Below are positions 44,087 through 58,227 of a DNA stretch of 64,000 nucleotides, one piece after another. The notes beneath the pieces were generated by a model. The model was not told the origin of the DNA. It made no database searches and was given only the letters and a program-made list of their open reading frames with translations. The stretch's first letter is position 1; each line of letters starts with the position of its first letter. The translations under genes and the position numbers were made by a program. Origin of the DNA: Escherichia phage EI-SP-GF; the sequence record OR992645.1. The stretch is one strand, 5' to 3'.

Positions 44087-44088
44087 TT

Positions 44089-44283: not shown

Positions 44284-44346
44284 AAGGTTGACATCTGAAA
44301 ACTGCAGTATATAATACAAACATAGACTAGCAGAGAGGGATAAATT

Positions 44347-44538: not shown

Positions 44539-44548
44539 GTATCGTACC

Positions 44549-44881: not shown

Positions 44882-44901
44882 GAAAGTGCAGGAGATAAAG
44901 T

Positions 44902-45147: not shown

Positions 45148-45337
45148 GCTTAAATCTGCATGGAACATTGCTGTGGGTGATGAGATCCGCATTCCGGGTG
45201 GGAAGACCGTTATGAAGATATCCCGTATTGAATACGAAGGAGACCGTGTATTCCACATCTTTGCAGAAGATGGTCGGGAAATTTATGTACAAGCAGGCTC
45301 TCACATCTATATCCGTAAGAAAGGGGATGACAAATGA
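45134..45337 (+). CDS. hypothetical protein
   Basis: 67-aa ORF coupled to neighbours; RBS AAGGAGGG. Confidence 0.4.
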   Translation: MQMFKLKSAWNIAVGDEIRIPGGKTVMKISRIEYEGDRVFHIFAEDGREIYVQAGSHIYIRKKGDDK

Positions 45338-45663
45338 CAGAGATCATTATTTCAACTGCAGGGTATGTATTCCTGACAATCATTGCTCTGACCATTTTGG
45401 TGGCGGTATATGGATTTGTTATTCTACCTATTCTTGAGACAATTAGTTTGTGTCGGTGTTGGAGAAAGGCTTACGGTCCACAGCCGTGGAGGGACTGGCC
45501 CCACCTGGTTCGCATAGCGTTCTCTTATGCTTATGATCACGCCAGCAGTGCATGCATAACAGGGTATCACGCTCACAATTGGAACTGGGAAGGGTTGGGT
45601 AGATGGAATGTTATAAAGACCATACCTCTACGTATGCACAAGCCTAAAAACAAAGACAATTGA
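45334..45663 (+). CDS. small membrane protein
   Basis: 109 aa; N-terminal hydrophobic segment VFLTIIALTILVAVYGFVILPIL; ATGA coupling. Confidence 0.4.
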   Translation: MTEIIISTAGYVFLTIIALTILVAVYGFVILPILETISLCRCWRKAYGPQPWRDWPHLVRIAFSYAYDHASSACITGYHAHNWNWEGLGRWNVIKTIPLRMHKPKNKDN

Positions 45664-45974
45664 TACTTGAAAATCCCTGGCACATCAAGTATAAGGAGGA
45701 TTTCTAAAATGGATTTCCTCCTTTTGATATTTTACCTAGCCGGATATTTTAAAATTCTTAGAAAATCAGAAAATGGATCGAAAACTAAAATGGATTTTTC
45801 AAGACAGGCGCGATAAGATGTGCTGCTCATTCTATCGTTCGCACCGTACTTTAAGTTACTATTCCAGATTTTCCGCACATACCCTCACCCTTCTACCAGA
45901 ACTTTCCCAGCTTACCTTTGACCTTTTATAACAATAAGCCCATTATTCTCAGTAGGTTTTGATACATCTCTCTC

Positions 45975-46062
45975 AGTACTCGATCTGTTTTTCGTTTCAA
46001 AGATTGAATTTTCTGAAAATTTTTCTCGATAAATTTCTTAGTACTCGATCTGTTTTTCGTTT
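45975..46062. repeat. tandem repeat in an AT-rich non-coding region
   Basis: AGTACTCGATCTGTTTTTCGTTT at about 45975 and 46040 (65-bp period) with degenerate further copies (CGATTTTTCGTTTTC, TTTTCTGAAAAT/TTTTCTGGAAAT). Confidence 0.6.
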
Positions 46063-46267
46063 TCTGAATCAGATTTTCTGGAAATCGTTCCGGAGCTCGA
46101 CCTGAAATTTTTGGGGACGAAATCGATTTTTCGTTTTCGGAAATGGATTTTTAAAATTTGTATATGGAAATATTTAAGGAGGTATTATTTTATATAGAAT
46201 TGTCACGGTAGGTAATTAGCATGCTAACTAAATTTATGAAATGCGAAAAGTTCTCATTTAGAATTTT

Positions 46268-46478
46268 GAATGATAATCATTCTCGTTTGCAGAATAACGG
46301 GCACCCCCGGTGATTGTCTCCCGGCCCCTGTTGCCCCGGCTTGTTATTATAGTATCACACAGGACAAAGAAAGCAAGGATTTTTTGCATAAATTTTTAAA
46401 TGATAATGATAACCGTTCTCATTTTATGCAGCGCCCATCCCCGGTGGTTGTCTCCCCCGTCACCGGTGCCTGCCGTCC
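46268..46478. repeat. two paralogous GC-rich elements of about 75 nt (possible structured RNAs)
   Basis: AATGATAATCATTCTCG...GGCACCCCCGGTGATTGTCTCCCGGCCCC versus AATGATAATGATAACCG...GCCCATCCCCGGTGGTTGTCTCCCCCGTCACCGG; no convincing ORF. Confidence 0.5.
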
Positions 46479-46923
46479 TTTCGATAGGTATATTGTGCCA
46501 CCTGTCGGGGCCGCTGTCAACACTTTTCAAAAAAAAAATTCTAACCTGATGCGCTAACCGTTGCAACCTGGCGGGGCCAGCCTGACCAGGTAGGAGAGAG
46601 TGAAAGCTTGCAAACCTGGTAGGCCTATGCTACAGGGCAGGTAACAATTGAAGAGGAGGTACAAAAATGAAAGGTAATTTGATCCCCTGGAAATGTAGCG
46701 ATTAATGACGCTGAGGCTATCGCCCTGGTTGAAAAGGCTATGGCGGGAGCGTTGGAACATAAAGAAGAGTACGAAAAAATGATGGTTAACCTGGTAGGGG
46801 CGGCGGCTGGAGAATTCTGCCCAAAAAATAATTCTAACTAATGGTTGACAGCTCGGATAGTTCTGTTATTCTTATCCTTGCAAGGTGAACAACACCACAC
46901 TAATTAACAGAGAGGATAAAATC

Positions 46924-47121
46924 ATGAACGCCTACGGAATTAAAGTACGTCGCAACACTTGCCAGGCCGTCACCGATCAAATGATTTGCCAGGTGGACGT
47001 AACCATCAACAACGGGCAAGGCCTTTATAAATTCCGTCGCGGTCAGAGCTATACCCGGCAACAGCTTAATCGTTGCGCCCTGACAAAAGGCCAGATCAAC
47101 CACTGGTTTAATAAAAAATAA
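46924..47121 (+). CDS. small early-region protein
   Basis: ATG after AGAGAGGATAAAATC; TTGACA promoter-like box upstream; 65 aa. Confidence 0.45.
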   Translation: MNAYGIKVRRNTCQAVTDQMICQVDVTINNGQGLYKFRRGQSYTRQQLNRCALTKGQINHWFNKK

Positions 47122-47124
47122 GTA

Positions 47125-47153
47125 TTGACATACAGTCCGACACCAAATACACT
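47125..47153 (+). promoter_or_regulatory. sigma70-like promoter
   Basis: TTGACA-17 nt-TACACT. Confidence 0.45.
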
Positions 47154-47185
47154 AAAAGCACAAAAGACACTAAGAGGATAAAATC

Positions 47186-47584
47186 ATGAAAACCACTACC
47201 TTTAATTTTGATAATGCGGACTTTTCTTTTTCTGATGTCAAGAACTGCCGCCGTGATCGTGGATTTTACAAGGCTTATAATCTGGTGGGCCTGGACGATG
47301 ACAATAATTTGCACGAAGTAGCTGAGATCCGGTATTATGCCGCCGCCAGCGGGAACACTCAATACTGCGTTTTTTGGATTCACGACAACAAGAACAATAA
47401 GTACGGTTATACTGGCGGGAAGGCGAGCGGTCACGGTTACGATAAAGCTAATGCAGCACTTGAGAGCGCATTAAATGCTATGGGGATCACTGCCAACGGC
47501 TGGATCTATGAAGAAGAGTTTTTGTCGGCACTTGCTAACCACCTGGGCTATAAAAAGCACATTGTAACATGCGCCCACGAATAA
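47186..47584 (+). CDS. small early-region protein
   Basis: ATG after AAGAGGATAAAATC (same leader as the previous gene); 132 aa. Confidence 0.5.
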   Translation: MKTTTFNFDNADFSFSDVKNCRRDRGFYKAYNLVGLDDDNNLHEVAEIRYYAAASGNTQYCVFWIHDNKNNKYGYTGGKASGHGYDKANAALESALNAMGITANGWIYEEEFLSALANHLGYKKHIVTCAHE

Positions 47585-47591
47585 AAAATTA

Positions 47592-47619
47592 TTGACACGC
47601 TGCAAAATTAAAGTAAACT
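47592..47619 (+). promoter_or_regulatory. sigma70-like promoter
   Basis: TTGACA-16 nt-TAAACT, followed by leader hairpin GGCGGGAA-TGTT-TCCCGCC. Confidence 0.5.
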
Positions 47620-47667
47620 AGGCACAAAAGGCGGGAATGTTTCCCGCCAACACAAAGGAAAAAGATC

Positions 47668-48063
47668 ATGAATAAGAACGTACGCCGCATCATGAACGAA
47701 CTGGCAAACGATGAAAAAATTATTGATATGCATTTGGTCAACATTTGCCGCCGTTGTGTAACATATAACAACCGCGCCGCAAAAGCGCGTGAGATGAACG
47801 CAAAAGGCACCTTAAAGCCCTTTCAGGTGGTTGTAAAATCTATAACTAATGCAGCAGGCCAGGCGCATGACCACAACAACGAGAGCACTAATATTGATCC
47901 GTCTTACGTAATGAAACGGATCCGGACTTGCAAGAATAAAGATCAGGTGTATAACGTCATAGATTGGCTGGACTCCATGGGCGATGTTGTTTATAATAGG
48001 TTTTCTGCAGCTATCGAGATCCAGCTTGACAGACTGGACGGGAAAGTACTGAAAACTTACTAA
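47668..48063 (+). CDS. small early-region protein
   Basis: 131 aa; RBS AAAGGAAAAAG. Confidence 0.5.
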   Translation: MNKNVRRIMNELANDEKIIDMHLVNICRRCVTYNNRAAKAREMNAKGTLKPFQVVVKSITNAAGQAHDHNNESTNIDPSYVMKRIRTCKNKDQVYNVIDWLDSMGDVVYNRFSAAIEIQLDRLDGKVLKTY

Positions 48064-48074
48064 GTTTATTTTTA

Positions 48075-48111
48075 GATGGCCTTGACTCCAGGGCCATCAA
48101 TAAAGTAAACT
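48075..48111 (+). promoter_or_regulatory. palindrome-embedded promoter element, copy 1
   Basis: GATGGCC-TTGACTCCAG-GGCCATC hairpin with TTGACT as -35 and TAAACT 18 nt downstream. Confidence 0.5.
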
Positions 48112-48142
48112 AATCCCAGTTAAGCTAAAAGGGGGCTTAAAG

Positions 48143-48262
48143 ATGAGCACTACACGCCAGCACACAAAGGTAACTATTATCGTTTGCATCATTGGTTATA
48201 TCCTGGCGCAAATGTTGATGGGTAGCGCCAACAGTGTCGCAAAATTTTTCTTAAACTTTTAA
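48143..48262 (+). CDS. small hydrophobic peptide (39 aa)
   Basis: Hand-translated: MSTTRQHTKVTIIVCIIGYILAQMLMGSANSVAKFFLNF; RBS AGGGGG; directly after promoter element copy 1; under the track threshold. Confidence 0.3.
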   Translation: MSTTRQHTKVTIIVCIIGYILAQMLMGSANSVAKFFLNF

Positions 48263-48290
48263 TTGACAAGCTAACTTAGATCAGTATACT
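48263..48290 (+). promoter_or_regulatory. sigma70-like promoter
   Basis: TTGACA-16 nt-TATACT; leader hairpin GGGAAAACTTCCC downstream. Confidence 0.55.
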
Positions 48291-48340
48291 AAACACATCA
48301 ACGGGAAAACTTCCCAGAACACACAAAAGGAGAAAACACC

Positions 48341-48682
48341 ATGACTACTATGACCGCCGCAGAAAAAGCTATTCAGATCGCTGCCCTGAAAAAACAGATC
48401 GCAGACCTTGAGAATAAGATCGATAACTTTGAAATCGACGAGGACAAGTACGACGAAAACTATGATGAATGGTTAGACGAGATCTACGGCGAAATTATGA
48501 TCGGAAACATTTCTTTTCTTCCGTCGCGTATCCTCAAGGAGCTAGATCCTATCGCTTACCGCTGCGGATTTAGCGACTACATCGACAGCCTGGATATTGA
48601 GGACGATGAAGAATACCAGGAATTACAGACAGAGTTGGAAGAAGCAAAAGAAGAGCTTGCGGAGCTGGAAGAAAACGAGTAA
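48341..48682 (+). CDS. highly acidic coiled-coil protein
   Basis: 113 aa, strongly D/E-rich (DEDKYDENYDEWLDE, ELEEAKEELAELEENE); RBS AAGGAGA. Confidence 0.5.
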   Translation: MTTMTAAEKAIQIAALKKQIADLENKIDNFEIDEDKYDENYDEWLDEIYGEIMIGNISFLPSRILKELDPIAYRCGFSDYIDSLDIEDDEEYQELQTELEEAKEELAELEENE

Positions 48683-48693
48683 GATTATTTTTA

Positions 48694-48730
48694 GATGGCC
48701 TTGACTCCAGGGCCATCAATAAAGTAAACT
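48694..48730 (+). promoter_or_regulatory. palindrome-embedded promoter element, copy 2
   Basis: Identical to copy 1 (GATGGCCTTGACTCCAGGGCCATCAATAAAGTAAACT). Confidence 0.5.
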
Positions 48731-48771
48731 TTATACTGTTAACACTGAACTAATGCATAGGAGTTAAAACC

Positions 48772-49017
48772 ATGGCAGCACTAATCACTAAATATTACGC
48801 CCCTACCAACACCAAAAGCGCCCGTATCATGGTAAAAGGCTTCGGACGTAAAAAGGTTTACACCTGGGATTATTCCCTAGACATGGAAGACAACTACACC
48901 AACGCGATGACTGATTTTATTAATGAACTAAATAAGCAGATCTTAACCAATTATAAGGTGACCGACATCGCCTATGTTGGGGAAGGTGGGATCTGTTTTG
49001 TCGGTATTGTCAAATAA
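48772..49017 (+). CDS. small early-region protein
   Basis: 81 aa; RBS TAGGAG. Confidence 0.45.
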   Translation: MAALITKYYAPTNTKSARIMVKGFGRKKVYTWDYSLDMEDNYTNAMTDFINELNKQILTNYKVTDIAYVGEGGICFVGIVK

Positions 49018-49092
49018 ACTGTTTTTTCGGTGGCCCTGGTGGCAGGGCCATCTATAAAGATAGTTTATTAACACCATGAAAGGAGAAAGTAC

Positions 49093-49446
49093 ATGATCAG
49101 CGGGGCTAGTTTTATTATTGGCGCTATTGCTACAGCTTTAATTGTAAACAAGATCCAGGATAAAAAGGAAAGAGGAAGTACCGCCCTTGCAGAATATCCA
49201 TTTTGGACATTCAACGATAACGAAGATTATATTATAAAGTATAAAAATAAAGAAGGTTACCAAGTAACACCGCGACCGATCCCGGCTTACAAGATGCAGG
49301 AAACACTATACCGCTTGGAGGCAGGGGGCGCAAAAATTGTGGACTTTTGGGGATACGATCACACAGATCAGGAAGTTATAAAGCGCCGTATCCGGGCTAT
49401 TCAGGCCAATATTGAAGTTAGCAAGGGGGGAATATATGAAGATTAA
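49093..49446 (+). CDS. small membrane-anchored protein
   Basis: 117 aa with hydrophobic N-terminus ISGASFIIGAIATALIV; RBS AAAGGAGAAAG. Confidence 0.45.
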   Translation: MISGASFIIGAIATALIVNKIQDKKERGSTALAEYPFWTFNDNEDYIIKYKNKEGYQVTPRPIPAYKMQETLYRLEAGGAKIVDFWGYDHTDQEVIKRRIRAIQANIEVSKGGIYED

Positions 49447-49633
49447 TTTTGAGAAAATTGTAAAGCGATCTCATGATTCCGAAGAGCTGCCGGAACGCCG
49501 CCAGCGTAACAATAAACTGAATAAGCCAAAAAGATTTGGGAAGATCTGGCGGAATCATTATGATCGTAAATTGCCGGGCCTCCTTTTGGAACGTGAACGG
49601 CAGGCGGAACGATACCGCCACAAAGGCAACTAA
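49436..49633 (+). CDS. small basic protein
   Basis: Start at ATG (MKINFEK) after AAGGGGGG; Arg/Lys-rich; canonical terminator downstream. Confidence 0.4.
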   Translation: MKINFEKIVKRSHDSEELPERRQRNNKLNKPKRFGKIWRNHYDRKLPGLLLERERQAERYRHKGN

Positions 49634-49641
49634 CAACCAAC

Positions 49642-49670
49642 GCCCCGCCATCGTGCGGGGCTTTTTATTT
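49642..49670 (+). terminator. Rho-independent terminator
   Basis: GCCCCGC-CATCGT-GCGGGGC followed by TTTTTATTT. Confidence 0.6.
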
Positions 49671-49791
49671 CTACCCTACAAATAGCGCCCCTGGTTGGCC
49701 CCACAACGCCCTAAAAGCCCCCTACCCATGCAATCCCCTTTCTTAACCTGAAAACATCGTCAAAGGCTGTTTTAAAGCGTTAAAAATATTG

Positions 49792-49819
49792 TTGACATCT
49801 AAAATATTCTAGATATACT
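49792..49819 (+). promoter_or_regulatory. sigma70-like promoter
   Basis: TTGACA-16 nt-TATACT. Confidence 0.55.
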
Positions 49820-49854
49820 AATCACATCAAAGCGAGAAGTAAGGAGTAAACGCC

Positions 49855-50115
49855 ATGCGTAAATTGAAAAATTTTGATAAAGTCGATGTTGTCCTAAATA
49901 ATTTTTACTACTGCAATAACAAGGCCGTTTGGTGGCGTGATAGTTCCACCGATAAAGTCAAGGCGCGCTTTCTCCAGGGGCACTGGCAAGGCCGCCCAGT
50001 GATTAAAATCATGGGGCAATTGGTAGCGTTTAAAAATTGCCGCCGTGTTGATGACGTTGAAGAGATTTTAAACATTTTGCGCCACAATAATTTAAAAAAT
50101 AGTGTTGACAAGTAA
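49855..50115 (+). CDS. small early-region protein
   Basis: 86 aa; RBS TAAGGAG. Confidence 0.45.
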   Translation: MRKLKNFDKVDVVLNNFYYCNNKAVWWRDSSTDKVKARFLQGHWQGRPVIKIMGQLVAFKNCRRVDDVEEILNILRHNNLKNSVDK

Positions 50116-50132
50116 ATCTCAATAAGTATACT
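50105..50132 (+). promoter_or_regulatory. sigma70-like promoter
   Basis: TTGACA-16 nt-TATACT overlapping the end of the upstream gene; leader hairpin GGCGGGAAAACTTCCCGCC. Confidence 0.55.
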
Positions 50133-50189
50133 TAAACACACAGGCGGGAAAACTTCCCGCCACCAACAAAGAAAATAGGAGAAAATATC

Positions 50190-50813
50190 ATGACTACCGT
50201 TAACATTACCACAGGTTACAATTTAGCTTTCGACGTGCTGACCGACGAACAAAAAGAAAAAGCCGTGGAAATGGTCCGCGAAAGAGAAGAACACAGCGGG
50301 GATAACTTTTTTGCAGAAAGTGTAATTGAGTACTATAAAGAATATGTTTTTCCAGAGTACGGCCTTGAAGATACCGATGTACATTGGTCAGGCTTTTGGT
50401 GCCAGGGTGACGGCGCGTCAATCAGTGCGGAAAACGTGGATTTAGAAAAATTCTTGCGTAAAGTCAAGTCTCTGACTAAATTCCGCTCAATTCGTCACTT
50501 GTTCGGCACAATGCACGATGGCGAGTTATCCGCAAGTGTTGAGCGTGATCCATATAGCCGCTATAGTCACGAAAACACTGTAAACGGGTACATCGATACT
50601 ACATGGCTAGACCTGACCACCAAGCAAGAAAACAAAGTGGAAGATCTGGAAGAGCTGATCACCGAGACGGTACGGGAGTTATCCCGCAAGGTTTACGTAG
50701 ACCTGGAGGAGGCCTATCTAGAACAGTTCACTACCGAAAACCTGATCGGCCTTATTGAGGCCAATGATTGGCGGTTTGATGTCGATGAACACGGTGAGAT
50801 GACTTTTTCATAA
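50190..50813 (+). CDS. acidic early-region protein (207 aa)
   Basis: RBS ATAGGAGAAAA; D/E-rich throughout. Confidence 0.5.
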   Translation: MTTVNITTGYNLAFDVLTDEQKEKAVEMVREREEHSGDNFFAESVIEYYKEYVFPEYGLEDTDVHWSGFWCQGDGASISAENVDLEKFLRKVKSLTKFRSIRHLFGTMHDGELSASVERDPYSRYSHENTVNGYIDTTWLDLTTKQENKVEDLEELITETVRELSRKVYVDLEEAYLEQFTTENLIGLIEANDWRFDVDEHGEMTFS

Positions 50814-50821
50814 ATAAAGTG

Positions 50822-50849
50822 TTGCAATAACCTAAAAACCTGCTATATT
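50822..50849 (+). promoter_or_regulatory. sigma70-like promoter
   Basis: TTGCAA-16 nt-TATATT; leader hairpin GGGGCAAGACGTTTGCCCC. Confidence 0.45.
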
Positions 50850-50902
50850 AAAACTCAAGGGGCAAGACGTTTGCCCCCACACAAAACAAAGAGGTAAACA
50901 TT

Positions 50903-51283
50903 ATGAAAAACACTACTAAAGCTATTGACACCGTTATGTTTAACCTGGTTACCTTTCGCGAGGATATGAAAGATCTTCCACGTGAAACAGTGTGCGATCA
51001 CATTGAAAACTATCGCAAACTAATCAAAGAGTTGCCTTTAAAACGTGATCAGTATGCGGCTAACGCCATGCTTAATGCCATGATCAAAAAGATGATCCAG
51101 TGTGATTTAACTTTGGCCTATGACTATGCTGGTGGTCGTTTTGCAGTATACAATCAGCCCGTGCCCGGTATGGGCACCACCGAAGAATTGCACGCGCTCA
51201 ATCTAAAACAAGACGTGTGGGATAGTATGCCCCGCGTGGTGGTGTGGGCAGAAAGCGGAAAGATTTACGGCGATAATTTTTAA
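50903..51283 (+). CDS. small early-region protein
   Basis: 126 aa; RBS AAAGAGGTAAAC. Confidence 0.5.
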   Translation: MKNTTKAIDTVMFNLVTFREDMKDLPRETVCDHIENYRKLIKELPLKRDQYAANAMLNAMIKKMIQCDLTLAYDYAGGRFAVYNQPVPGMGTTEELHALNLKQDVWDSMPRVVVWAESGKIYGDNF

Positions 51284-51293
51284 TCAGGTAACA

Positions 51294-51319
51294 GGCGGCA
51301 TATTTGCCGCCTTATTGTT
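51294..51319 (+). terminator. Rho-independent terminator
   Basis: GGCGGCA-TATT-TGCCGCC followed by TTATTGTT. Confidence 0.5.
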
Positions 51320-51347
51320 AAACAGAACTGCAAAAGAGGTACATAGA

Positions 51348-51719
51348 ATGGAATTTATTATTTTGGCTGTATTGGTTGCCTTGTTTAACGCCTGGATCGC
51401 TGGCAAGATGGGCAGATCCGCCTTTTTATGGTTTATTATATCTATTTTCCTGGGGGTGGTTGCAACTATTGTATTGGTTATCCTTGCAATTGTTGACAAG
51501 GGGAATAATAGAAAGGGTAAAGTATTTTCAGACCTGTACGACGCTCAAACGTTTGTCAACGCCTATTATAGTGATCTTCCAGTCTCCCTACGCTGCAGCC
51601 TGGCACAACAGGTTTTTGATGAGGCTAAAACCAGAGATCAAGCCCATGAGATATGTTTAACTGAGGCGGATCGCCTATTTGAGAGGAATAGAAAATATGT
51701 GGGCCAACCGTTTAAATAA
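51348..51719 (+). CDS. small membrane protein
   Basis: Start at ATG (MEFIILAV) after AAAGAGG; two hydrophobic segments. Confidence 0.45.
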   Translation: MEFIILAVLVALFNAWIAGKMGRSAFLWFIISIFLGVVATIVLVILAIVDKGNNRKGKVFSDLYDAQTFVNAYYSDLPVSLRCSLAQQVFDEAKTRDQAHEICLTEADRLFERNRKYVGQPFK

Positions 51720-51942
51720 TGCCACGTTAATTAATTCCTTTAGTGAAGATTTGAAGCCAGCCGCCTGGCGTGACGGATTCAATAACGAACGCTTTATTTT
51801 CAGGCCTGATCTTGAGGAATTTTATAACAATGGATCGAACAACAGCGGAGATAATTTTTCTTGTGGTGTGTGTCGTGATAGGACTCCTGGGGGCCATTGT
51901 AGATCGCGTCACTACTACCGGGAGGAAAGGGGGAGACGATGA
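51697..51942 (+). CDS. small early-region protein
   Basis: Start at ATG (MWANRL) after GAGAGGAA; overlaps the upstream gene by about 23 nt. Confidence 0.35.
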   Translation: MWANRLNNATLINSFSEDLKPAAWRDGFNNERFIFRPDLEEFYNNGSNNSGDNFSCGVCRDRTPGGHCRSRHYYREERGRR

Positions 51943-52062
51943 CAACCAAGGATAAGCCATGCACCGATAAGGTGCGCCGCGTTATGGTATGGCTTGAGAT
52001 TATCGCCCTTGAAATATTGCTAGGCGTAGGGATGTACTTTATCGCTGTAAGTAACTAGGAAC

Positions 52063-52091
52063 GGCCCCCGATCATGGGGGCCTATCTTTTT
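52063..52091 (+). terminator. Rho-independent terminator
   Basis: GGCCCCC-GATCAT-GGGGGCC followed by TATCTTTTT. Confidence 0.55.
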
Positions 52092-52197
52092 AAAAAATTT
52101 TTCTTCCGTGGTGTTGCAATCCGGTCCGGAATGTGGATAATAACAATCAACGGGGAGCTAATCCTCACCACCACAAAAACCAGAAAGGAGAAACAAA

Positions 52198-52398
52198 ATG
52201 AGCAACAATATCCGCGTTATTAACTTCAAAAAAGAAGAAAAAATTGCCGTGCTGATTGACGGTCAAGAAATCTTCAAGGGCGACTATGAAGATCATCAAA
52301 CGGCGATTAGTATCACTCGCGTGATTGGTTACCATAATTTTTACCCCCAAGGAGCTGAGGCAGCGGTTAAACGAATCAAAGAGATTGTAGGCCTGTAA
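52198..52398 (+). CDS. small early-region protein
   Basis: 66 aa; RBS AAAGGAGAAAC. Confidence 0.45.
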   Translation: MSNNIRVINFKKEEKIAVLIDGQEIFKGDYEDHQTAISITRVIGYHNFYPQGAEAAVKRIKEIVGL

Positions 52399-52410
52399 AA
52401 TTTATTTTTA

Positions 52411-52447
52411 GATGGCCTTGACTCCAGGGCCATCAATAAAGTAAATT
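52411..52447 (+). promoter_or_regulatory. palindrome-embedded promoter element, copy 3
   Basis: GATGGCCTTGACTCCAGGGCCATCAATAAAGTAAATT; same element as at 48075 and 48694. Confidence 0.5.
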
Positions 52448-52491
52448 TAAACCCTGTTAAAATACCACGCAGTTAACAAGGAGTGATAGAC

Positions 52492-52791
52492 ATGTTTATC
52501 CAGGCTAATAATCTTTATTTCTTTGATGGTCAGATCGTAGATGGTGTGGAAGTGGAGATCACTGGGTGCCCTGGCGGTCAGGCTATGACTTTTCGGAATA
52601 ATGCCTTTGATGATTCTCATATCGTTATGAGAATGGAAGTTACGAAGCTGGATGACAAGAAAACACTCATTGACTATTCTGTGAAAGATCATCCAGACTA
52701 CCACATGATCTATGGTGATTTGTGCATTGTTGACCGTGACAAGGTGAGCGGCATTGTGATCGCTATTGTGAACGATGTTTTCTCAAACTAA
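52492..52791 (+). CDS. small early-region protein
   Basis: Start at ATG (MFIQANN) after AAGGAG. Confidence 0.45.
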   Translation: MFIQANNLYFFDGQIVDGVEVEITGCPGGQAMTFRNNAFDDSHIVMRMEVTKLDDKKTLIDYSVKDHPDYHMIYGDLCIVDRDKVSGIVIAIVNDVFSN

Positions 52792-52808
52792 TTTCAACAG
52801 GTGATTTT

Positions 52809-53159
52809 ATGAAAGTTAAATTATATTACCTTAATGAGCTTAACCCCCTTGCCCAGGTCCGCGCCCTAGCTAATACCTTGATTTGTGAGAAATCTGTATA
52901 TTGTGTTGAGCTTAACGCCATGCGTGAACGTCTCAAAGGTGGTTACTTTAACATCCATGCTGCAATCAACGGCCTGAATATGGAATTTATCCGTTTACGT
53001 AACAGCCGCCGGAATCTGGCAAGAATGGAACAAGATCCGGCCCACCTTCGTAAGCTGGTTATTGAAAATCATCTGATGTTTAATGCCGAGGGTGATTATT
53101 ACCATTTTCACCGCAAACGCTGGTACCGTGGCGGCAATACAGGCAAGAATGCAAAATAA
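52809..53159 (+). CDS. small early-region protein
   Basis: 116 aa; basic C-terminus. Confidence 0.45.
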   Translation: MKVKLYYLNELNPLAQVRALANTLICEKSVYCVELNAMRERLKGGYFNIHAAINGLNMEFIRLRNSRRNLARMEQDPAHLRKLVIENHLMFNAEGDYYHFHRKRWYRGGNTGKNAK

Positions 53160-53197
53160 GGCCCCAGGCAGGGCCTACAGCGACCTAAACACTAGCA

Positions 53198-53228
53198 GGC
53201 TATGCAATCGCATAGCCTTTATTGTTTT
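53198..53228 (+). terminator. Rho-independent terminator
   Basis: GGCTATGC-AATC-GCATAGCC followed by TTTATTGTTTT. Confidence 0.55.
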
Positions 53229-53275
53229 GACGTTACAACGGCCCTAAGGCGCTTAAAAAATTTTTAAAGAAGTAC

Positions 53276-53304
53276 TTGCATCATTCCCGACAATATGGAT
53301 AATA
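53276..53304 (+). promoter_or_regulatory. sigma70-like promoter
   Basis: TTGCAT-17 nt-(G)ATAATA. Confidence 0.45.
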
Positions 53305-53361
53305 AGAGTTGTCGAGGGGGGAGGCCCCCAATCATTGACCAGATAGATAGGAGTTAAAATC

Positions 53362-53646
53362 ATGGCTATTGTTACCGCTGGCGATGTAGTAGAAATGGAA
53401 GCAAAATACTTAAAAGCGGGTATGCATATCCTACGGAATGATCAAGAGTTATTATTAACGATGGTTGACTATAATCCCGGCCAGGATTATCCAAGCATCG
53501 ACTACTTTTTTGAGTATGTTAATGAAGAGTTGAAAGAGGATGAGGCCTACTGCGGTGAGTTCTGCAACTTCTTTTGTCCTGATGAGGTTGTAAAGGTTAT
53601 TTATCAACCTGGCGTAGCTTTCCCGCTGCACGCTATCAATAAATAA
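53362..53646 (+). CDS. small early-region protein
   Basis: 94 aa; RBS TAGGAG; N-terminus MAIV.. like the 54020 product. Confidence 0.45.
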   Translation: MAIVTAGDVVEMEAKYLKAGMHILRNDQELLLTMVDYNPGQDYPSIDYFFEYVNEELKEDEAYCGEFCNFFCPDEVVKVIYQPGVAFPLHAINK

Positions 53647-53710
53647 ACCTGGCGGGGCCGAAAAGGCCCCTACAGCATAAAATTATGAAAATAAAGAGAG
53701 GTAAATCATC

Positions 53711-53944
53711 ATGATGGAACAAATTAAACGCACCGAGGCTATTAATGGCAATGTGATCTATTTTGTTAGCAATAACGAGAAAGGCGTACCATATGCAGCG
53801 GTAATAGTACAGCCTGACGGTGATTATTGGTTTACTGTATACGGATCTTATTCTTTCGGGCGTCCGGTGCATGATAGAATTTTGAAAGTAGCGAACCCTA
53901 CCGGGAAGAATATCACAGCAGAAAAATTTTTTGAAAATAGTTGA
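53711..53944 (+). CDS. small early-region protein
   Basis: 77 aa; RBS AGAGAGG. Confidence 0.45.
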   Translation: MMEQIKRTEAINGNVIYFVSNNEKGVPYAAVIVQPDGDYWFTVYGSYSFGRPVHDRILKVANPTGKNITAEKFFENS

Positions 53945-53968
53945 CATGACCATATAAAACTGTAATAT
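53941..53968 (+). promoter_or_regulatory. sigma70-like promoter
   Basis: TTGACA-16 nt-TAATAT overlapping the upstream stop. Confidence 0.5.
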
Positions 53969-54019
53969 ATAAATCAAAGGGAGCAACAAGCCCCACCAAC
54001 CACAAAGAGGATAAAAATC

Positions 54020-54199
54020 ATGGCTATTATTGCAAAGACCGAGATCGTAGGCTTAGATTCTATTCTCCTCGCATATGAGGAAGCTATAGAAATGTATGTG
54101 GTTTCCTATGGTGAGTATATCCGTGAATATGAATCTATTGATCTAGCTTTTGAATGTTATATTCGCCAGGTTAATAAAGCGTACGATGATTATCGTTAA
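54020..54199 (+). CDS. small early-region protein (59 aa, absent from ORF track)
   Basis: Hand-translated MAIIAKTEIVGLDSILLAYEEAIEMYVVSYGEYIREYESIDLAFECYIRQVNKAYDDYR; RBS AAAGAGGATAAAAATC identical in style to other leaders. Confidence 0.4.
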   Translation: MAIIAKTEIVGLDSILLAYEEAIEMYVVSYGEYIREYESIDLAFECYIRQVNKAYDDYR

Positions 54200-54291
54200 A
54201 ATAGTTTGACAACAAACAACCATCTAACAAAGCATAATACATAAGGTGGTAGAATGATCCGCCACCCCGGAACAAAGAAGAGGTAAACACC

Positions 54292-54537
54292 ATGAAAAGC
54301 AATAAAGGTTATAACGGTTACAAAAACAAAACTCATTGGAATGTAAGCCTTTGGATTAATAACGATGAGTCATTGTACCGGTTGGCCCAAGGCTTTATTA
54401 ACGCTAATGCTAATCGTAATGATGCGGCGCGGGATATGATGCTTTTTCTGGAGCTAACCGGACAAGATAAGACCCCGGACGGCTTCAAGTACAGCACTAC
54501 GGCGATCCGTGCCGCGATGGTTGGAATGAAACACTAA
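54292..54537 (+). CDS. small early-region protein
   Basis: 81 aa; RBS AGAAGAGGTAAAC. Confidence 0.45.
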   Translation: MKSNKGYNGYKNKTHWNVSLWINNDESLYRLAQGFINANANRNDAARDMMLFLELTGQDKTPDGFKYSTTAIRAAMVGMKH

Positions 54538-54614
54538 AAGCACATAGCCGCCTTACCCTGGGGCTGTGGTAGCGGCCCCATGAATAAGGTTACTAACAGA
54601 AGAGAATAAACACC

Positions 54615-54719
54615 ATGAAACAGAAATTAATCGATGCAGTGATCTTGATTATTGCCCTGGGTATTGGCCTGATTGCAACCATGTCTAATATGATCTTGTC
54701 TTCCAACGGTATCGGGTGA
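54615..54719 (+). CDS. small hydrophobic peptide (34 aa)
   Basis: Hand-translated MKQKLIDAVILIIALGIGLIATMSNMILSSNGIG; RBS AGAGAATAAAC; under the track threshold. Confidence 0.3.
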   Translation: MKQKLIDAVILIIALGIGLIATMSNMILSSNGIG

Positions 54720-54728
54720 GGTTGGCAA

Positions 54729-54944
54729 ATGATCACTAACAAAACTGGCAAAACAGAATTTTTACGCAACTTACAGATCGGCAAGCCTGAGATCTGGTAC
54801 TGCACTAAAACACCGCGTGACGAAATGAAAGACTTCACCGCCACGCTGCAACGGGTAAAGATATCTATCACGCAGAAAAAGGCCTTACTAGTGGTGGAAG
54901 GGGAAATCCCCCAAACCGTTGTTATAGTTGAGCGTACAGCATAG
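54729..54944 (+). CDS. small early-region protein
   Basis: 71-aa ORF. Confidence 0.4.
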   Translation: MITNKTGKTEFLRNLQIGKPEIWYCTKTPRDEMKDFTATLQRVKISITQKKALLVVEGEIPQTVVIVERTA

Positions 54945-55035
54945 TTTAATTTATACCGATACCCGAAAATTAACCAACAAATCATAAACAGGCGGTTACC
55001 GCCGCCTTAAACGTAGCAGAAAGAGGATAGACACA

Positions 55036-55326
55036 ATGAAAAAGATGATCGCAGTGGTTGCCCTGGTTGTTGGACTTAGTGCGCCTGCAATGGCTAATGA
55101 GCTGGCAAAAGAGGTTAATCTAACGGATATTCATGCCGTCAATCGAATCGGGGTTACTTATCGCTTATGCCTTGCCACTAAAACTTTTAATGACGGTACA
55201 ACAGAGTACTACGGATTCGAGGGTATCCGGTGCGGTGAACTTGCTCGCGACCTTAAGGAAGATCCAGACCTGGAAGATTTGCCGATGACGGTAAACGGTA
55301 AAGCTTACGTAAACCGCCAACAATAA
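55036..55326 (+). CDS. small secreted/periplasmic protein
   Basis: Signal-peptide-like N-terminus MKKMIAVVALVVGLSAPAMA; RBS AAAGAGGATAG. Confidence 0.5.
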   Translation: MKKMIAVVALVVGLSAPAMANELAKEVNLTDIHAVNRIGVTYRLCLATKTFNDGTTEYYGFEGIRCGELARDLKEDPDLEDLPMTVNGKAYVNRQQ

Positions 55327-55342
55327 GTAAGGGCGATGTAAA

Positions 55343-55534
55343 ATGAATACTGAACAAGTTAGAAAGGTATTGGCGGTACTGCGTTATCATAATCATAAAA
55401 AGGTGATAGACGATCCTGATTATGTAGATTCAAGCCTGGAAGAGGACACGCTACAAGCTATAGGCCATATGCAAGAATTGCTTAAACGCATGACAGAGAA
55501 AAACCGACCGGACTACATAGGGGGTAAAATATGA
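55343..55534 (+). CDS. small early-region protein
   Basis: 63-aa ORF. Confidence 0.4.
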   Translation: MNTEQVRKVLAVLRYHNHKKVIDDPDYVDSSLEEDTLQAIGHMQELLKRMTEKNRPDYIGGKI

Positions 55535-55842
55535 TCGCTATTACGCCAACCGTTTTAGATTGGTATCGGCAACGCATAGCGCCTCCACTGGCTATCTTCA
55601 AAGATGCGGAAGCAAAACAACGCCGGATCTCAATACATGAGATCATCAACCTTAACGCTGGAGGCACACCATACCGCCCAGGACCTGGCCGTGAGATGGA
55701 CAATACATTGGCGATCCTGAAGATACGCCGTAAACGGTCCTCCCTTACGCTGGATTCATTACACACAATGCAGTCTCCGTTCCAGGTGACTGGGAAACGG
55801 ATCGCCAGGTCCTGGACAAAGGCCAATGACCGGACCGTATAA
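55531..55842 (+). CDS. small early-region protein
   Basis: 103 aa; ATGA coupling; basic. Confidence 0.4.
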   Translation: MIAITPTVLDWYRQRIAPPLAIFKDAEAKQRRISIHEIINLNAGGTPYRPGPGREMDNTLAILKIRRKRSSLTLDSLHTMQSPFQVTGKRIARSWTKANDRTV

Positions 55843-55976
55843 ATAAAAGTGTTTTGGTACTGATTTTGGGGTTGACTTGTTCGGCCCCTTTTGCTATTCT
55901 TATTAAACGGGCGGCACTTGGGAACAGGTGGAGACAATCACCGGGCCTGCCTGTCATATAAGAACTATAAAAACCG

Positions 55977-56005
55977 TTGACATCTGCCATGGGGTGGGGT
56001 AACAT
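55977..56005 (+). promoter_or_regulatory. sigma70-like promoter
   Basis: TTGACA-17 nt-TAACAT. Confidence 0.45.
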
Positions 56006-56059
56006 TTATCTTGAAGGGGCAAAGGTGCCCACACAACAACCAGAAGAGAGGAAAACACT

Positions 56060-56332
56060 ATGTCAAGCTGGATTAATCAAGAAGTCGAATCACGTTTTAA
56101 TGCTATTTGGGATCTCATCGAAAAAGAAGACGGCACATCAAGCCCCTACCTCAACAATTTGGAATTCCATTTTGTGGAAGCGATGAACGCAGAACATGAT
56201 CACGAAGGTGGTGCGGACGAGTTCGCTAAAGGGTATGGCTTCAACAATGCCAACGAAATGATCGAGGCGGTTGTACTCCAGGCTGAGGAAGATTATCAAT
56301 TAAAAACGCTTGAATTCTGCCGCCGTAAGTAA
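56060..56332 (+). CDS. small acidic early-region protein
   Basis: 90 aa; RBS AGAGAGGAAAAC. Confidence 0.45.
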   Translation: MSSWINQEVESRFNAIWDLIEKEDGTSSPYLNNLEFHFVEAMNAEHDHEGGADEFAKGYGFNNANEMIEAVVLQAEEDYQLKTLEFCRRK

Positions 56333-56392
56333 TAAGATAATGACACGGGCCGGGAGGCCCACTAATCAGAACCGCACAAAGAGGTAAACATC

Positions 56393-56656
56393 ATGAAACG
56401 TCTTGATCAGCTTAAACTAGTTCAGTACATGGCCTACAAAATTCTTGAAGTCCAAAAAGGTAGCAAAAAAGAGGTTTGCGAGAAAGCGTACAAGATCTTT
56501 ACTCGTAAAAAAGACGATTGGATGTTGCGCCAGACTAAAAAGGCTGACATCTTGGGGTACCTGGAAGAAGAGATCCGACTTGAAGAGCAAGAAGAGATCC
56601 GCCGTAGTGAGGCAGATTATCAGGCAGCCTGGGAAAGCTGGATGAATAACAAATAA
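56393..56656 (+). CDS. small early-region protein
   Basis: 87 aa; RBS AAAGAGGTAAAC. Confidence 0.45.
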   Translation: MKRLDQLKLVQYMAYKILEVQKGSKKEVCEKAYKIFTRKKDDWMLRQTKKADILGYLEEEIRLEEQEEIRRSEADYQAAWESWMNNK

Positions 56657-56723
56657 TACAACAGGTTGCATGGTCAGGGGCGATAAAGCCCCTTGATCAC
56701 ATAAAAAATTATGCTATCCCTTG

Positions 56724-56752
56724 TTGACAGGGATCGGCAGTTTTGCTATATT
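56724..56752 (+). promoter_or_regulatory. sigma70-like promoter
   Basis: TTGACA-17 nt-TATATT. Confidence 0.5.
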
Positions 56753-56801
56753 CTTTTTTGAAGGGAAGTTGTAAGAAAATTAACTAAGAGGTAAAAACAC
56801 C

Positions 56802-57221
56802 ATGAACATTAAATCTGATAATCCGGCATATAGCTTTGATAACGCTTTTTGTCACGGTCCGGCGGCGAAAGGATTCGAAATCGATGGTAAACTAGTTATT
56901 GTCAATGTTGACGGGGAAGAGGTTGCAGTATATCCGGTGGCAGACGTTAAAAGCCGTCTACAATGCCGCATCGATGTTACCGCCTACCAGCTTGATCCGG
57001 TCCGGGTAGTTGCCCTGGTCCTGGAAGAAGAAATTAAAGCAATGCACCACAGCAACAAGTTTATTGGTGACGCTCAAGATAATATGAAGGTGTGCCGCCA
57101 TAAAGTTAATGAAGTGCTTAAAGAATATGGCTTTAAAGATCTGATGATCAAACGTGAGGAAAAATTCCGCTACCGTAACGACCTGGCAAATCGGATTTTT
57201 GAAATATACGAATCATTATAA
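56802..57221 (+). CDS. early-region protein (139 aa)
   Basis: RBS TAAGAGGTAAAAAC; last + strand gene before a strong terminator. Confidence 0.5.
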   Translation: MNIKSDNPAYSFDNAFCHGPAAKGFEIDGKLVIVNVDGEEVAVYPVADVKSRLQCRIDVTAYQLDPVRVVALVLEEEIKAMHHSNKFIGDAQDNMKVCRHKVNEVLKEYGFKDLMIKREEKFRYRNDLANRIFEIYESL

Positions 57222-57240
57222 TTTCTTAACTGAATTATCA

Positions 57241-57266
57241 AGGGGCTTAAAGGCCCCTTTCTTTTT
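57241..57266 (+). terminator. Rho-independent terminator ending the rightward early unit
   Basis: AGGGGC-TTAAA-GGCCCCT followed by TTCTTTTT. Confidence 0.6.
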
Positions 57267-57874
57267 GTCTGCTCTTCTCCTACCATAAACGGCCCTACCT
57301 GGCAAGTGGAATAATTGACTAGCCATCAATCCCACACACTGTACAAATATACATGGAAAATAACTATTGCATAATCTTTCATTGTGTGGTAGCAAGGCCA
57401 TTTTTACCCGTTTTCTCTCCCAAAAGTGCACGTAATGCAGCTATTGCACAAATTTTAACCTGATGCATATCTCCAATATCTTGTCAACAACTAAAAATCT
57501 TTATAAGTCATACACTTACACAGCATCGAAAGCGTGTTCTACGCGAAAAATCGAGTATAACTATAGCCGCCAGATCTCAGAATTCACGTACGCACGCCAT
57601 TCTATAGCCTGCAAAGTATTTATTCCAACCACAGAATAACGGAATAGTCAATACCTGCATAAAATAATTATTCGTGTAAACTGCATAACATAAATCAGCT
57701 CAGGTGTCAACATTTTTCGTAAACAGTCCGAAATTATCACGATGAGTTATCATAAACAGAGAAATCTTTAGTCGTCTAATGTTTACTGTACATTACTATA
57801 CTGACTGGAATCATTAGATGACTAAGAAAAAGATAAGAAATAATTAATAATGTAATTGTTTTACCTGTAACAAT

Positions 57875-58053
57875 AAGGCAACTATGCAAACGAATGGCAT
57901 GGCGCGACGGAGTCGCGACATAATATAAAAGCAGTAACCATCACCCCCGTGATGGTTTTTCTGCAATCTATTATTCAGATCATAGTTGCCTTGTATTTAG
58001 TTAATCATGACATAACAAGCAAGGCAACTGTAGATCTTCTAATAGTTGCCCTG
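57875..58053. repeat. alternating-orientation 12-mer repeats (ATAGTTGCCTTG family) plus a duplicated 20-mer
   Basis: ATAGTTGCC(T/C)TG at about 57983 and 58042, reverse complement at about 57875 and 58018; ATGCAAACGAATG(G/T)CATGGC at 57884 and 58142. Confidence 0.55.
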
Positions 58054-58174
58054 CTTTTATATTATGTCATAGATTATTAACTTATTAACTGTCAGCTTGT
58101 TGGCTGTTAGCTTGTCAATTGTTATCTTGTTAATTGTTTTCATGCAAACGAATGTCATGGCTTATCATCTCTGT

Positions 58175-58227
58175 GTAAACAGTTTGGGCGTAAACTATTC
58201 AGGCGTAAACAGTCTATGAGTAAACAG
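58175..58227. repeat. phased iteron array
   Basis: GTAAAC(A/T)(G/A) at 58175, 58190, 58205 and 58220, exactly 15 bp apart; further GTAAACAG copies at about 57719, 58532 and 59273 and inverted at about 58387. Confidence 0.6.

Follow-up and report, generated by a model that had tools for sequence, protein, structure and literature searches.

Hairpin-bearing promoter cassettes in the accessory-gene region of Escherichia phage EI-SP-GF, a Vequintavirus

Introduction

Why would a phage place a short GC-rich hairpin just behind the promoters of a whole series of small genes? The question is raised by Escherichia phage EI-SP-GF (sequence record OR992645.1), of which a stretch of 64,000 nucleotides (nt), here called the window, was analysed. 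A sequence-only reading of this DNA had pointed out five such hairpins between 47,592 and 56,400, each said to lie between a promoter and a CA-rich spacer followed by a nearly invariant ribosome binding site (RBS), and had proposed that they stabilise transcripts or serve as processing or regulatory sites. The explanation that we favour, with a probability of about 50%, is that these leaders are composite expression cassettes of an accessory-gene (ORFan) region, in which a 5'-proximal hairpin protects the mRNA and is followed by a nuclease-poor leader, and that the cassettes also serve as recombination sites.

EI-SP-GF belongs to the Vequintaviruses (rV5-like), and its identity to phage LL12 is 96.9%. 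Over the 10 kb that surround the leaders, many Vequintavirus genomes (299 records) are 92–97% identical, LL12 coming first (96.9%), followed by Murica, rV5 variants and FFH2. The region is a run of about 40 small genes on the + strand (42–57.3 kb), which corresponds to the distal end of the rV5 unit called '10-1-238-164' (PMC3606486). A Pfam scan of 10 proteins encoded downstream of the leaders found no family for 8 of them; one is a DUF7249 protein.

Recurrence of the leader layout

Every intergenic leader of the region was tabulated. Eight genes of the + strand are preceded by a sound sigma-70 promoter and a hairpin; they start at 47668, 48341, 50190, 50903, 52198, 53362, 54020 and 56060, and their leaders are called here cassettes A to G and I, respectively. 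The order of the elements is always the same: an AT-rich tract, the sigma-70 promoter, 9–12 nt, a hairpin with a G arm and a C arm, a spacer made of A and C, an RBS of the AAGAGG(A/T)AAA type, and the ATG. The same layout is found on the + strand at 30061–30146, outside the 47.6–56.4 kb range. The recurrence noticed by the sequence-only reading is therefore real, and common to eight genes at 47.6–56.1 kb plus one at 30.1 kb.

All five hairpins of the sequence-only reading are present, at 47630–47648, 48303–48315, 50143–50161, 50859–50877 and 56347–56360. The promoter that it placed before each of them exists in four cases, where the hairpin lies 9–12 nt after a sigma-70-like −10 box and the promoter consists of TTGACA or TTGCAA, a 16-nt spacer and TAAACT, TATACT or TATATT. 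The fifth, at 56347, is a hairpin-only leader, since just a GATAAT is found 5 nt upstream, with no −35 box at 16–18 nt. The promoter and hairpin leaders of genes 52198, 53362, 54020 and 56060 and that at 30061–30146 had been overlooked, as had the hairpin of gene 54292 (cassette H), whose promoter is doubtful because of its 21-nt spacer, and the hairpin-only leaders before genes 53711, 54615 and 55036. Together with that of gene 56393, the latter make four hairpin-only leaders on the + strand (K, L, M and J, respectively). Finally, genes 44347, 46924, 47186, 49855 and 56802 have a promoter and no stable hairpin (44347 and 46924 are just upstream of the range). The leaders of 44347, 47186 and 49855 are about 20 nt shorter than the others, as though one module were missing.

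The RBS is indeed standardised: the pattern AAGAGGWAAAMAYCATG occurs 8 times (with at most 3 mismatches) compared to 1.6 ± 1.3 expected, and all the copies are on the + strand at 46.9–56.4 kb.

Position and composition of the hairpin

In the 8 window cassettes, AT-rich tracts such as aaaaattttt precede the −35 box, the promoters are of the form TTGACA/TTGCAA, 16–17 nt, TAnnnT, and the first paired base of the hairpin lies 9–12 nt after the −10 box, in a sequence with 56% A. The distance from the stem to the ATG is looser (19–31 nt). The 5' arm contains 63% G and the 3' arm 60% C, and the loops have 3–5 nt. The spacer that follows is composed of 60% A, 28% C, 9% G and only 3% T/U (n = 117), compared to 25% T in all the intergenic DNA, and the predicted folds leave the RBS open.

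The minimum free energies (MFE) of the leaders range from −5.5 to −14.6 kcal/mol. Summed over the 14 promoter-bearing leaders, the MFE is −99.9 kcal/mol; dinucleotide shuffles give −57.7 ± 6.8 kcal/mol, and none of 500 reached the value of the leaders (z = −6.2). The spacing was evaluated on 79 strong promoter-like sites, taken from the window (29–57.3 kb) and from three distant relatives. A strong simple hairpin occurs within 48 nt of 38 of these 79 sites. For 23 of these promoters, which span three genera, its start is 8–13 nt past the −10 box, whereas shuffled sequences gave 2.5 ± 1.5 (maximum 7).

Conservation in related phages

The region was compared with that of 14 Vequintavirus genomes or contigs and with three phAPEC8/phi92-like contigs, whose proteins are 64–69% identical. 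Within the genus, the stems persist and variability is greatest in the loops, while stem sequences differ from one cassette to another. The loop of cassette A is UGU, ACA or AACA depending on the phage; other series are GCUAA/ACA/AACA/GACA and GAGG/UGAU/GGUGAG. The hairpin of cassette B is unchanged in 9 distinct orthologous leaders, and that of cassette E varies within the genus in its loop alone, its stem being invariant. The stem of cassette F is GGGGG/CCCCC, GGGGG/CCUCC or GGAGG/CCUCC; across ten sequences, its central pair is GC in five, GU in four and AU in one, so that the two bases are paired in every case.

An alignment of all the leaders had been suggested as a check by the sequence-only reading. 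MAFFT put the stems of paralogous cassettes out of register, and a covariance model was therefore built from 22 cassettes. The model finds 36 copies on the + strand (13.7–50 bits) and 9 weak matches on the minus strand (at most 16.4 bits), nearly all of which overlap + strand copies; it recovers 6 window cassettes only, E, F, G and H being too different. The resulting alignment holds 45 copies; for 6 of its 8 pairs both partners change, with 23 cells compared to 6.7 ± 2.0 in shuffles (0/500), a result which is tempered by the fact that the alignment is itself fitted to the model. The stem pairs that are not Watson-Crick are G.U in 17 cases, A.C in 3 and other in 5, several of the G.U pairs being loop-closing and uncertain. 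This excess of G.U, like the lower model scores of the mirror images on the minus strand, favours pairing in the sense-strand RNA. Judging from these comparisons, the hairpin is kept as a structure, not as a sequence.

The copies of the distant phAPEC8/phi92-like phages are more uniform: TTGACA, 16/17 nt, TAnnnT, 6 nt, CAUAG, the hairpin and a purine-rich RBS. Their hairpins are GGCGGGAAA-ugg-UUUCCCGCC or GGCGGCA-auag-UGCCGCC, repeated more than 12 times in 10 kb. One alternative to 5'-end protection is an operator for an RNA-binding factor of the phage or the host (a translational repressor, a nut/boxB-like antiterminator or a specific endonuclease), which would time or process the early mRNAs. 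The stem GCGGGAA/UUCCCGC is common to cassettes A and C and to more than 12 phAPEC8-like cassettes, where it follows the conserved CAUAG, and the leader position is fixed. An operator seems improbable nonetheless: stems vary widely among the cassettes of one genome, close relatives differ most in the loops, some of which are even flipped in orientation, no leader contains a boxA-like element, Rfam gives no match, and stems of 5–8 bp are too short for RNase III.

The flipped loops deserve a separate mention. Relative to contigs L003 and L016, two loops are reversed to their reverse complement while the stems are unchanged: UGU/ACA in cassette A (47638–47640) and GACGU/ACGUC in cassette D (50866–50870). 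Such flips are what an inverted palindrome or a template switch in the DNA would leave behind.

Gene gain and loss at the cassettes

The cassettes resemble each other in sequence as well. Cassettes B and C are 76% identical over 38 nt. In phage V18 (L009), the leader of the homologue of gene 50190 is chimeric, its 5' half being identical to the B type (acgtaaaCGGGAAaacTTCCCG) and its 3' half being of the C type, which implies an exchange between cassettes 1.85 kb apart, with a crossover in the hairpin.

Many whole-gene insertions and deletions (indels) are observed among the 14 relatives. Contig L002 lacks exactly 619 nt between the first two copies of a 51-nt repeat (class 2, described below), with an overlap of 49 nt at the junction. 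Gene 54292 is absent in CM1, rV5_ev147 and I29, where its leader is fused to the next gene and the RBS regions are joined with a 32-nt overlap. In three relatives, a 257-nt gene insertion is located before gene 56393, at the RBS of leader J, with 36 nt of repeated RBS sequence on its flanks. Junctions of gene indels thus fall inside repeated cassette or RBS sequences, which bears out the idea of modular cassettes put forward by the sequence-only reading. Because of their mutual resemblance, the cassettes would serve as homology patches for gene gain, loss and swap.

Could the hairpins themselves be DNA elements, either cruciforms or recombination hot spots, or else act with T/G-rich sequences as minus-strand terminators that stop antisense transcripts coming from the convergent block of genes? 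The indel junctions and the chimera do map to the cassettes, loop inversions are seen, and crossovers in the promoter-early stem-loop cassettes of T4-like phages were mapped in the stem-loop (PMC2839356); in addition, three hairpins score as terminator-like on the minus strand. We nevertheless regard a role of this sort as quite improbable. The majority of the mapped junctions are in the RBS or in the class-2 repeat, not in the leader hairpin, and the ratio of G.U to A.C pairs (17 to 3) favours pairing in the sense RNA. The uniform polarity (G arm first) is not required by a symmetric DNA function, and the tails on the minus strand are poor T-runs (TGTGTGTTTA).

Possible protection at the 5' end or action on upstream transcripts

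If +1 is taken 7–8 nt after the −10 box, the promoter geometry predicts that the 5' arm begins at about +3 to +6 of the transcript, with about 2–5 unpaired nt before the stem. The hairpin would form in the sense RNA, at the shortest distance from the 5' end that is compatible with an AT-rich, meltable promoter. There it would limit the 5'-end-dependent decay (by RppH, then RNase E/G), and the nearly U-free spacer would offer few internal entry sites to RNase E, would not make an intrinsic terminator with the hairpin, and would leave the RBS unpaired. In read-through transcripts and in the promoterless leaders, cleavage in the AU-rich upstream sequence would leave the hairpin near the new 5' end. 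The hairpin appears to be tied to the 5' end of its own transcript because its distance is fixed relative to the −10 box and not to the RBS, and because cassettes E, F and I keep it although a true terminator already stands before their promoter; two further arguments for this explanation are the flank free of U and the bias to G.U on the sense strand. According to Emory 1992 and Bouvet & Belasco 1992, as cited in PMC3997798, 5'-terminal stem-loops stabilise the ompA and papA mRNAs of E. coli. Infection by T4 accelerates the RNase E/G-dependent decay of host mRNA (PMC3014915), which makes a benefit for the phage plausible.

The hairpin may instead act on transcripts that arrive from upstream, its position after the next promoter being incidental. 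It would then be an attenuator or a 3'-end element like the promoter-early stem-loops (PeSL) of T4-like phages, which either terminates or attenuates these transcripts, so that the gene depends on its own promoter, or forms the protective 3' hairpin of a processed upstream mRNA. Six cassettes (A, B, C, D, G and H) follow an upstream stop codon with no other terminator, the promoterless hairpins J to M lie between cistrons, and the record of phage Alma labels hairpins A and C as terminators. The PeSL stems of RB49 share the G-arm/C-arm polarity and likewise have no U-tract. However, the sequence downstream of the hairpins has 3% U and no U-tract, and E, F and I retain their hairpin despite a canonical terminator (stem and T-run) before the promoter, so that the hairpin is unnecessary for stopping upstream transcription. 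With a terminator 20–25 nt from its start, a gene's transcript would itself be cut short. The stem-loops of PeSLs occupy five variable positions (PMC2839356), in contrast to the tight 9–12 nt spacing seen here. Taken together, these observations make an effect on upstream transcripts, the main rival of 5'-end protection, possible but unlikely.

Several points weigh against 5'-end protection. A PeSL stem-loop from RB49/phi1, once inserted, lowered the expression of a downstream lacZ as much as the strong terminator rrnB T1 (PMC2839356), a result that also supports the attenuator. A literature search on rV5-like or Vequintavirinae phages gave nothing usable about start sites or transcriptomes, and the hairpin could therefore lie partly or wholly upstream of +1. 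In the ompA experiments, 2–5 unpaired 5' nucleotides reportedly are the upper limit of protection. Four hairpins have no promoter, and would require the extra assumption of processing upstream of the stem, and three to five good promoters have no hairpin. The constant spacing could be partly inherited through cassette duplication. Regarding structure, covariation at a single locus is not significant within the genus (for hairpin F, with one informative pair, 250 of 500 shuffles do as well), uncompensated stem mismatches also occur in relatives, and the loop flips suggest palindrome-templated DNA events which are able to mimic compensatory changes.

Anatomy of the individual leaders

All the leaders described in this section are on the + strand. 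Cassette A (47592–47670) has the promoter TTGACA-16-TAAACT (47592–47619) and the hairpin GGCGGGAA-tgt-TTCCCGCC (47630–47648), followed by the spacer aacaca, the RBS AAGGAAAAAGATC and the ATG at 47668; its MFE is −14.6 kcal/mol (z −4.0). In cassette B (48263–48343), TTGACA-16-TATACT precedes the hairpin GGGAA-aac-TTCCC (48303–48315), a CA spacer, AAGGAGAAAACACC and the ATG at 48341. Cassette C (50105–50192) has the same promoter boxes and spacing as B and the stem of A, with another loop (GGCGGGAA-aac-TTCCCGCC, 50143–50161), then accaacaaagaaaat, the RBS AGGAGAAAATATC and the ATG at 50190 (folding z −5.5). The promoter of cassette D (50822–50905) is TTGCAA-16-(TG)TATATT, its hairpin is GGGGCAA-gacgt-TTGCCCC (50859–50877), and the spacer cacacaaaacaaa and the RBS GAGGTAAACATT lead to the ATG at 50903 (z −2.9). 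In relatives, the stem of D is GGGGGCGAG/CTTGCCCCC, and in ECP2303 its loop is reversed to the reverse complement.

Cassette E (52114–52200) follows a terminator (52063–52082) and consists of TTGCAA-16-GATAAT, the weakened hairpin GGGGA-gctaa-TCCTC (52152–52166), a CA spacer, AAGGAGAAACAAA and the ATG at 52198. In relatives, this hairpin is perfect (GGGGAG-aca-CTCCCC or GGGGA-aaca-TCCCC, also GGGGA-gcuaa-UCCCC). Cassette F (53276–53364) also follows a terminator (53197–53218); TTGCAT-16-GATAAT is followed by GGGGG-gagg-CCCCC (53316–53329), AGGAGTTAAAATC and the ATG at 53362. The leader of the homologue of gene 53362 in V18 (L009) has a run of about 17 G in place of the 5' arm and the loop, a run that probably reflects an error of sequencing or assembly at the hairpin and not biology.

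Cassette G (53941–54022) combines TTGACA-16-TAATAT with the imperfect hairpin GGGAGC-aacaa-GCCCC (53979–53994), the spacer accaaccacaaa, the RBS GAGGATAAAAATC and the ATG at 54020 (z −2.0). The hairpin is perfect in most relatives (GGGGC-aacaa-GCCCC). In cassette H (54206–54294), the doubtful promoter has 21 nt between TTGACA and CATAAT, and the hairpin, GGTGG-N12-CCACC or GGYGG..CCGCC (54245–54266), is followed by GAGGTAAACACC and the ATG at 54292. Cassette I (55977–56062) is preceded by a terminator (55868–55888) and has TTGACA-17-TAACAT, the hairpin GGGCA-aagg-TGCCC (56016–56030), the spacer acacaacaaccagaaga, the RBS GAGGAAAACACT and the ATG at 56060. The outlying cassette (30061–30146) consists of TTGACT-17-TAAGAT, the hairpin GGGGAGG-cact-CCTCCCC (30101–30118), the spacer acaaaaact, the RBS AAGGAAGCACTAAACG and the ATG at 30144.

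Among the hairpin-only leaders, J (56347–56395) has GGGCC-ggga-GGCCC (56347–56360), a CA-rich spacer, AAGAGGTAAACATC and the ATG at 56393, with no credible promoter; across relatives its stem is kept and its loop is ggga, aaaa or gaaa. Leader K (53654–53713) has GGGGCC-gaaaa-GGCCCC (53654–53670), an RBS and the ATG at 53711; its homologue in the phAPEC8-like contig L004 is a full promoter and hairpin cassette. Leader L (54560–54617) contains GGGGC-N10-GCCCC (54560–54579), AGAAGAGAATAAACACC and the ATG at 54615, and leader M (54990–55038) contains AGGCGG-ttac-CGCC(GCCT) (54990–55007), AAGAGGATAGACACA and the ATG at 55036.

A second class of cassettes is defined by a 51-nt repeat of which there are four copies, three of them 94–100% identical. 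Copy 1 (48061–48111) consists of a T-rich tract, a GGCC..GGCC hairpin that encloses the −35 box TTGACT, 18 nt and TAAACT; the further copies are at 48680–48730 (98%), 52397–52447 (94%) and, in a diverged form, 49015–49065 (69%). Cassettes made of a promoter and an RBS only, with no hairpin and a leader about 20 nt shorter, are found at 47125–47188, 49792–49857 and 44288–44349. The leader at 56724–56804 is long and has no stable hairpin.

Surroundings of the region

The DUF7249 gene (54292–54537, 81 amino acids) varies in presence among close relatives. It recurs with 76–96% nucleotide identity in coliphages of about 145–155 kb from other genera (e.g., Justusliebigvirus) and in jumbo phages of more than 320 kb (Salmonella SD-15_S21 and Escherichia vB_Ec-M-J). 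In phAPEC8-like contigs, this gene has its own promoter and hairpin cassette.

The gene at 56802–57221, which has a Rel homology domain according to the Murica annotation, is wholly absent from L002, L011, L012 and L015. In this comparison (56694–57241), there is an overlap of 18 nt at the junction between two similar GGGGC..GCCCC hairpin or terminator sequences (in the 56670s and at 57240–57259).

On the 3' side of the gene run, about 2.3 kb of non-coding DNA separates it from a convergent block on the minus strand. This stretch (57300–59600), which has no convincing open reading frame (ORF), corresponds to the 'non-coding' box of rV5. It holds short iteron-like clusters: GTAAACAGT repeated about 4 times at 58175–58228, TGTTAGCTTGTCAAT repeated 2.3 times at 58105–58138, and units of the ATTGTG(T/C)CA type at 58253–58313 and 58671. 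A role in the start of replication or in packaging is conceivable for this stretch. Upstream of the cassettes, a non-coding gap of 462 nt (45808–46269) contains three direct repeats of about 47 nt, 72–100% identical, at 45966, 46031 and 46105; they are spaced by 65 and 74 nt and are rich in TTTTCG/TTTTC.

Occurrence beyond the coliphages

Viral contigs were scanned for TTGACA, N16/17, TAnnnT, N8–14 and GGCGGGAA, a pattern whose fixed stem makes the sample ascertainment-biased. Although the pattern did not demand it, the complementary arm CCCGCC is present in 28 of the 130 matches, and 22 of these 28 then have a Shine-Dalgarno (SD) sequence and an ATG. Most single matches are probably due to chance, so that just these 28 are informative. 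Many of them are in GC-rich Mycobacterium phages (Thonko, Imvubu relatives); in Thonko, a stretch of 3.5 kb contains four cassettes. Their cassette reads TTGACAA, N16, GGTAACTT, about 10 nt, GGCGGG-aaaua-CCCGCC, SD, ATG; it is present in L037 (Thonko, 99.5%), L062, L067, L073/L081/L085 and L137, whose lineage and host are unrelated to those of the coliphage. These occurrences suggest that the order promoter, hairpin, RBS is a recurrent phage design.

The same data bear on whether the hairpin has a function of its own at all. It could be a mere remnant that hitch-hikes with copies of an ancestral cassette and stays perfect because repair is templated by the palindrome: the cassettes are paralogous, copies E and G of the window are decayed, and several strong promoters work without a hairpin. 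Against this, the module stands at the same offset, with unrelated stems, in Vequintavirus, phAPEC8-like and phi92-like genomes, GC-rich mycobacteriophages have a like arrangement, and the U-free spacer is conserved together with the hairpin; we consider a remnant highly improbable.

A broader form of 5'-end protection, which is rather unlikely, would see the 5'-proximal hairpin and the U-free leader as a general 'self' signature of the early mRNAs of virulent phages, by which they survive the accelerated, RNase E/G-dependent mRNA decay that these phages bring about in the host. The signature would have more than one origin, among coliphages of the rV5, phAPEC8 and phi92 types and, with the order promoter, hairpin, SD unchanged, among GC-rich mycobacteriophages of the cluster-B type, and would amount to a discrimination between self and non-self at the RNA level carried by a mobile promoter cassette. 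A link to an RNase E activator of the Srd type would be conceivable, since the rV5 genome paper describes gp11 as a probable Srd homolog (PMC3606486); the Pfam scan of the ORF at 19434–20486 (minus strand), taken by its position as gene 11, found no family.

If the hairpins do cap 5' ends, the cassette would be a compact natural expression module which unites a promoter, an mRNA stabiliser, an insulating spacer and a standard RBS. This would explain how dozens of unrelated ORFans could be expressed strongly and uniformly straight after infection, and how genes could be swapped without re-tuning, the same repeats being recombination sites. Such modules are possible parts for synthetic biology and phage engineering, and since mycobacteriophages have their elements in the same order, the design might be widespread.

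Comparison with known systems

With GC-rich stems of 5–8 bp and loops of 3–5 nt, the hairpins look like intrinsic terminators, and some annotation pipelines label them so. They differ from them in being downstream of a promoter rather than upstream, and in having no U-tract. This identity was rejected: the sequence behind the hairpins has 3% U, compared to at least 5 T out of 8 in the true terminators of the region, and a terminator scan of the + strand called none of the leader hairpins. The labels that they currently bear should thus be corrected. In the rV5 paper, 33 promoters and 20 terminators are listed separately (PMC3606486).

Like the nut sites of lambda and the put sites of HK022, the hairpins are small and lie early in the promoter-proximal RNA, but here there is no conserved loop, no boxA, no N-like context, and many copies per operon. 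A nut/boxA site was rejected on the grounds of the hypervariable loops and the lack of a boxA-like match in any leader (in the window as a whole, boxA-like matches are at chance level, 45 compared to 50 ± 7). A scan of 42000–59500 on both strands with Rfam 15 (E ≤ 1) gave no match. In the early region of T7, hairpins between cistrons end up at the termini of the mRNAs and affect their stability. These RNase III sites have irregular stems of about 20 bp, whereas the stems are of 5–8 bp here and each has its own promoter; an RNase III site was rejected on stem length.

The likeness to the 5' stem-loops of ompA and papA is a short stable hairpin a few nucleotides from the predicted 5' end, an unstructured leader, a strong RBS, and the conservation of structure over sequence. 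The differences are that the 5' ends are predicted here, that the feature is found on about 10 genes of one genome and in a mobile cassette, and that the predicted 2–5 unpaired nt are at the reported limit of protection, stem-loops of the ompA type lying within about 0–4 nt of the primary 5' end.

The closest counterparts, which the sequence-only reading did not recognise, are the PeSL cassettes, described in the T4-like phages RB49/phi1 and also in PST/T4 and nt-1/KVP40 (Arbiol 2010, PMC2839356; Comeau 2014, PMC4122927). In these units, an AT-rich tract and a consensus sigma-70 promoter are combined with a polyG/polyC stem-loop and with the SD sequence and ATG of an ORFan; they form clusters in hyperplastic regions and mediate indels (PMC2839356; PMC4122927). 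Their authors proposed a terminator or attenuator role for the stem-loop (PMC2839356). The cassettes of EI-SP-GF are also intergenic units of about 60–100 bp, with an AT tract, a sigma-70 promoter, a stem-loop of G and C tracts, a CA-rich leader, an SD sequence and an ATG, in many copies in an ORFan-rich hyperplastic region, with indels and chimeras at cassette junctions between close relatives. The class-2 repeat, whose stem-loop surrounds the −35 box, matches a described PeSL subclass.

The differences are of several kinds. The carrier is a Vequintavirus and not a T4-like phage; the PeSL reports found concern T4-like myoviruses only, and a search for papers that had already described leader hairpins for rV5, phAPEC8 or phi92 gave nothing usable, the phi92 genome paper not being covered. 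Terminator activity and mini-circles were demonstrated for PeSLs, whereas the present hairpins are known from sequence and have no U-tract. Above all, in the RB49 cassettes, which were read directly, the stem-loop is between the −35 box and the −10 box or over the latter, and is therefore absent from the cassette's own transcript, whereas here it lies 9–12 nt after the −10 box, at a fixed offset. The PeSL placement, within or around the promoter or just before +1, is thus not that of the main class, and is seen only in the class-2 repeats at 48061, 48680, 49015 and 52397. The cassettes are best regarded as a PeSL variant from a phage lineage that is new for this kind, with the stem-loop apparently inside the transcribed leader. 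They would extend the PeSL concept past T4-like phages with the stem-loop moved into the transcript, which sharpens the question of what the stem-loop of PeSLs does.

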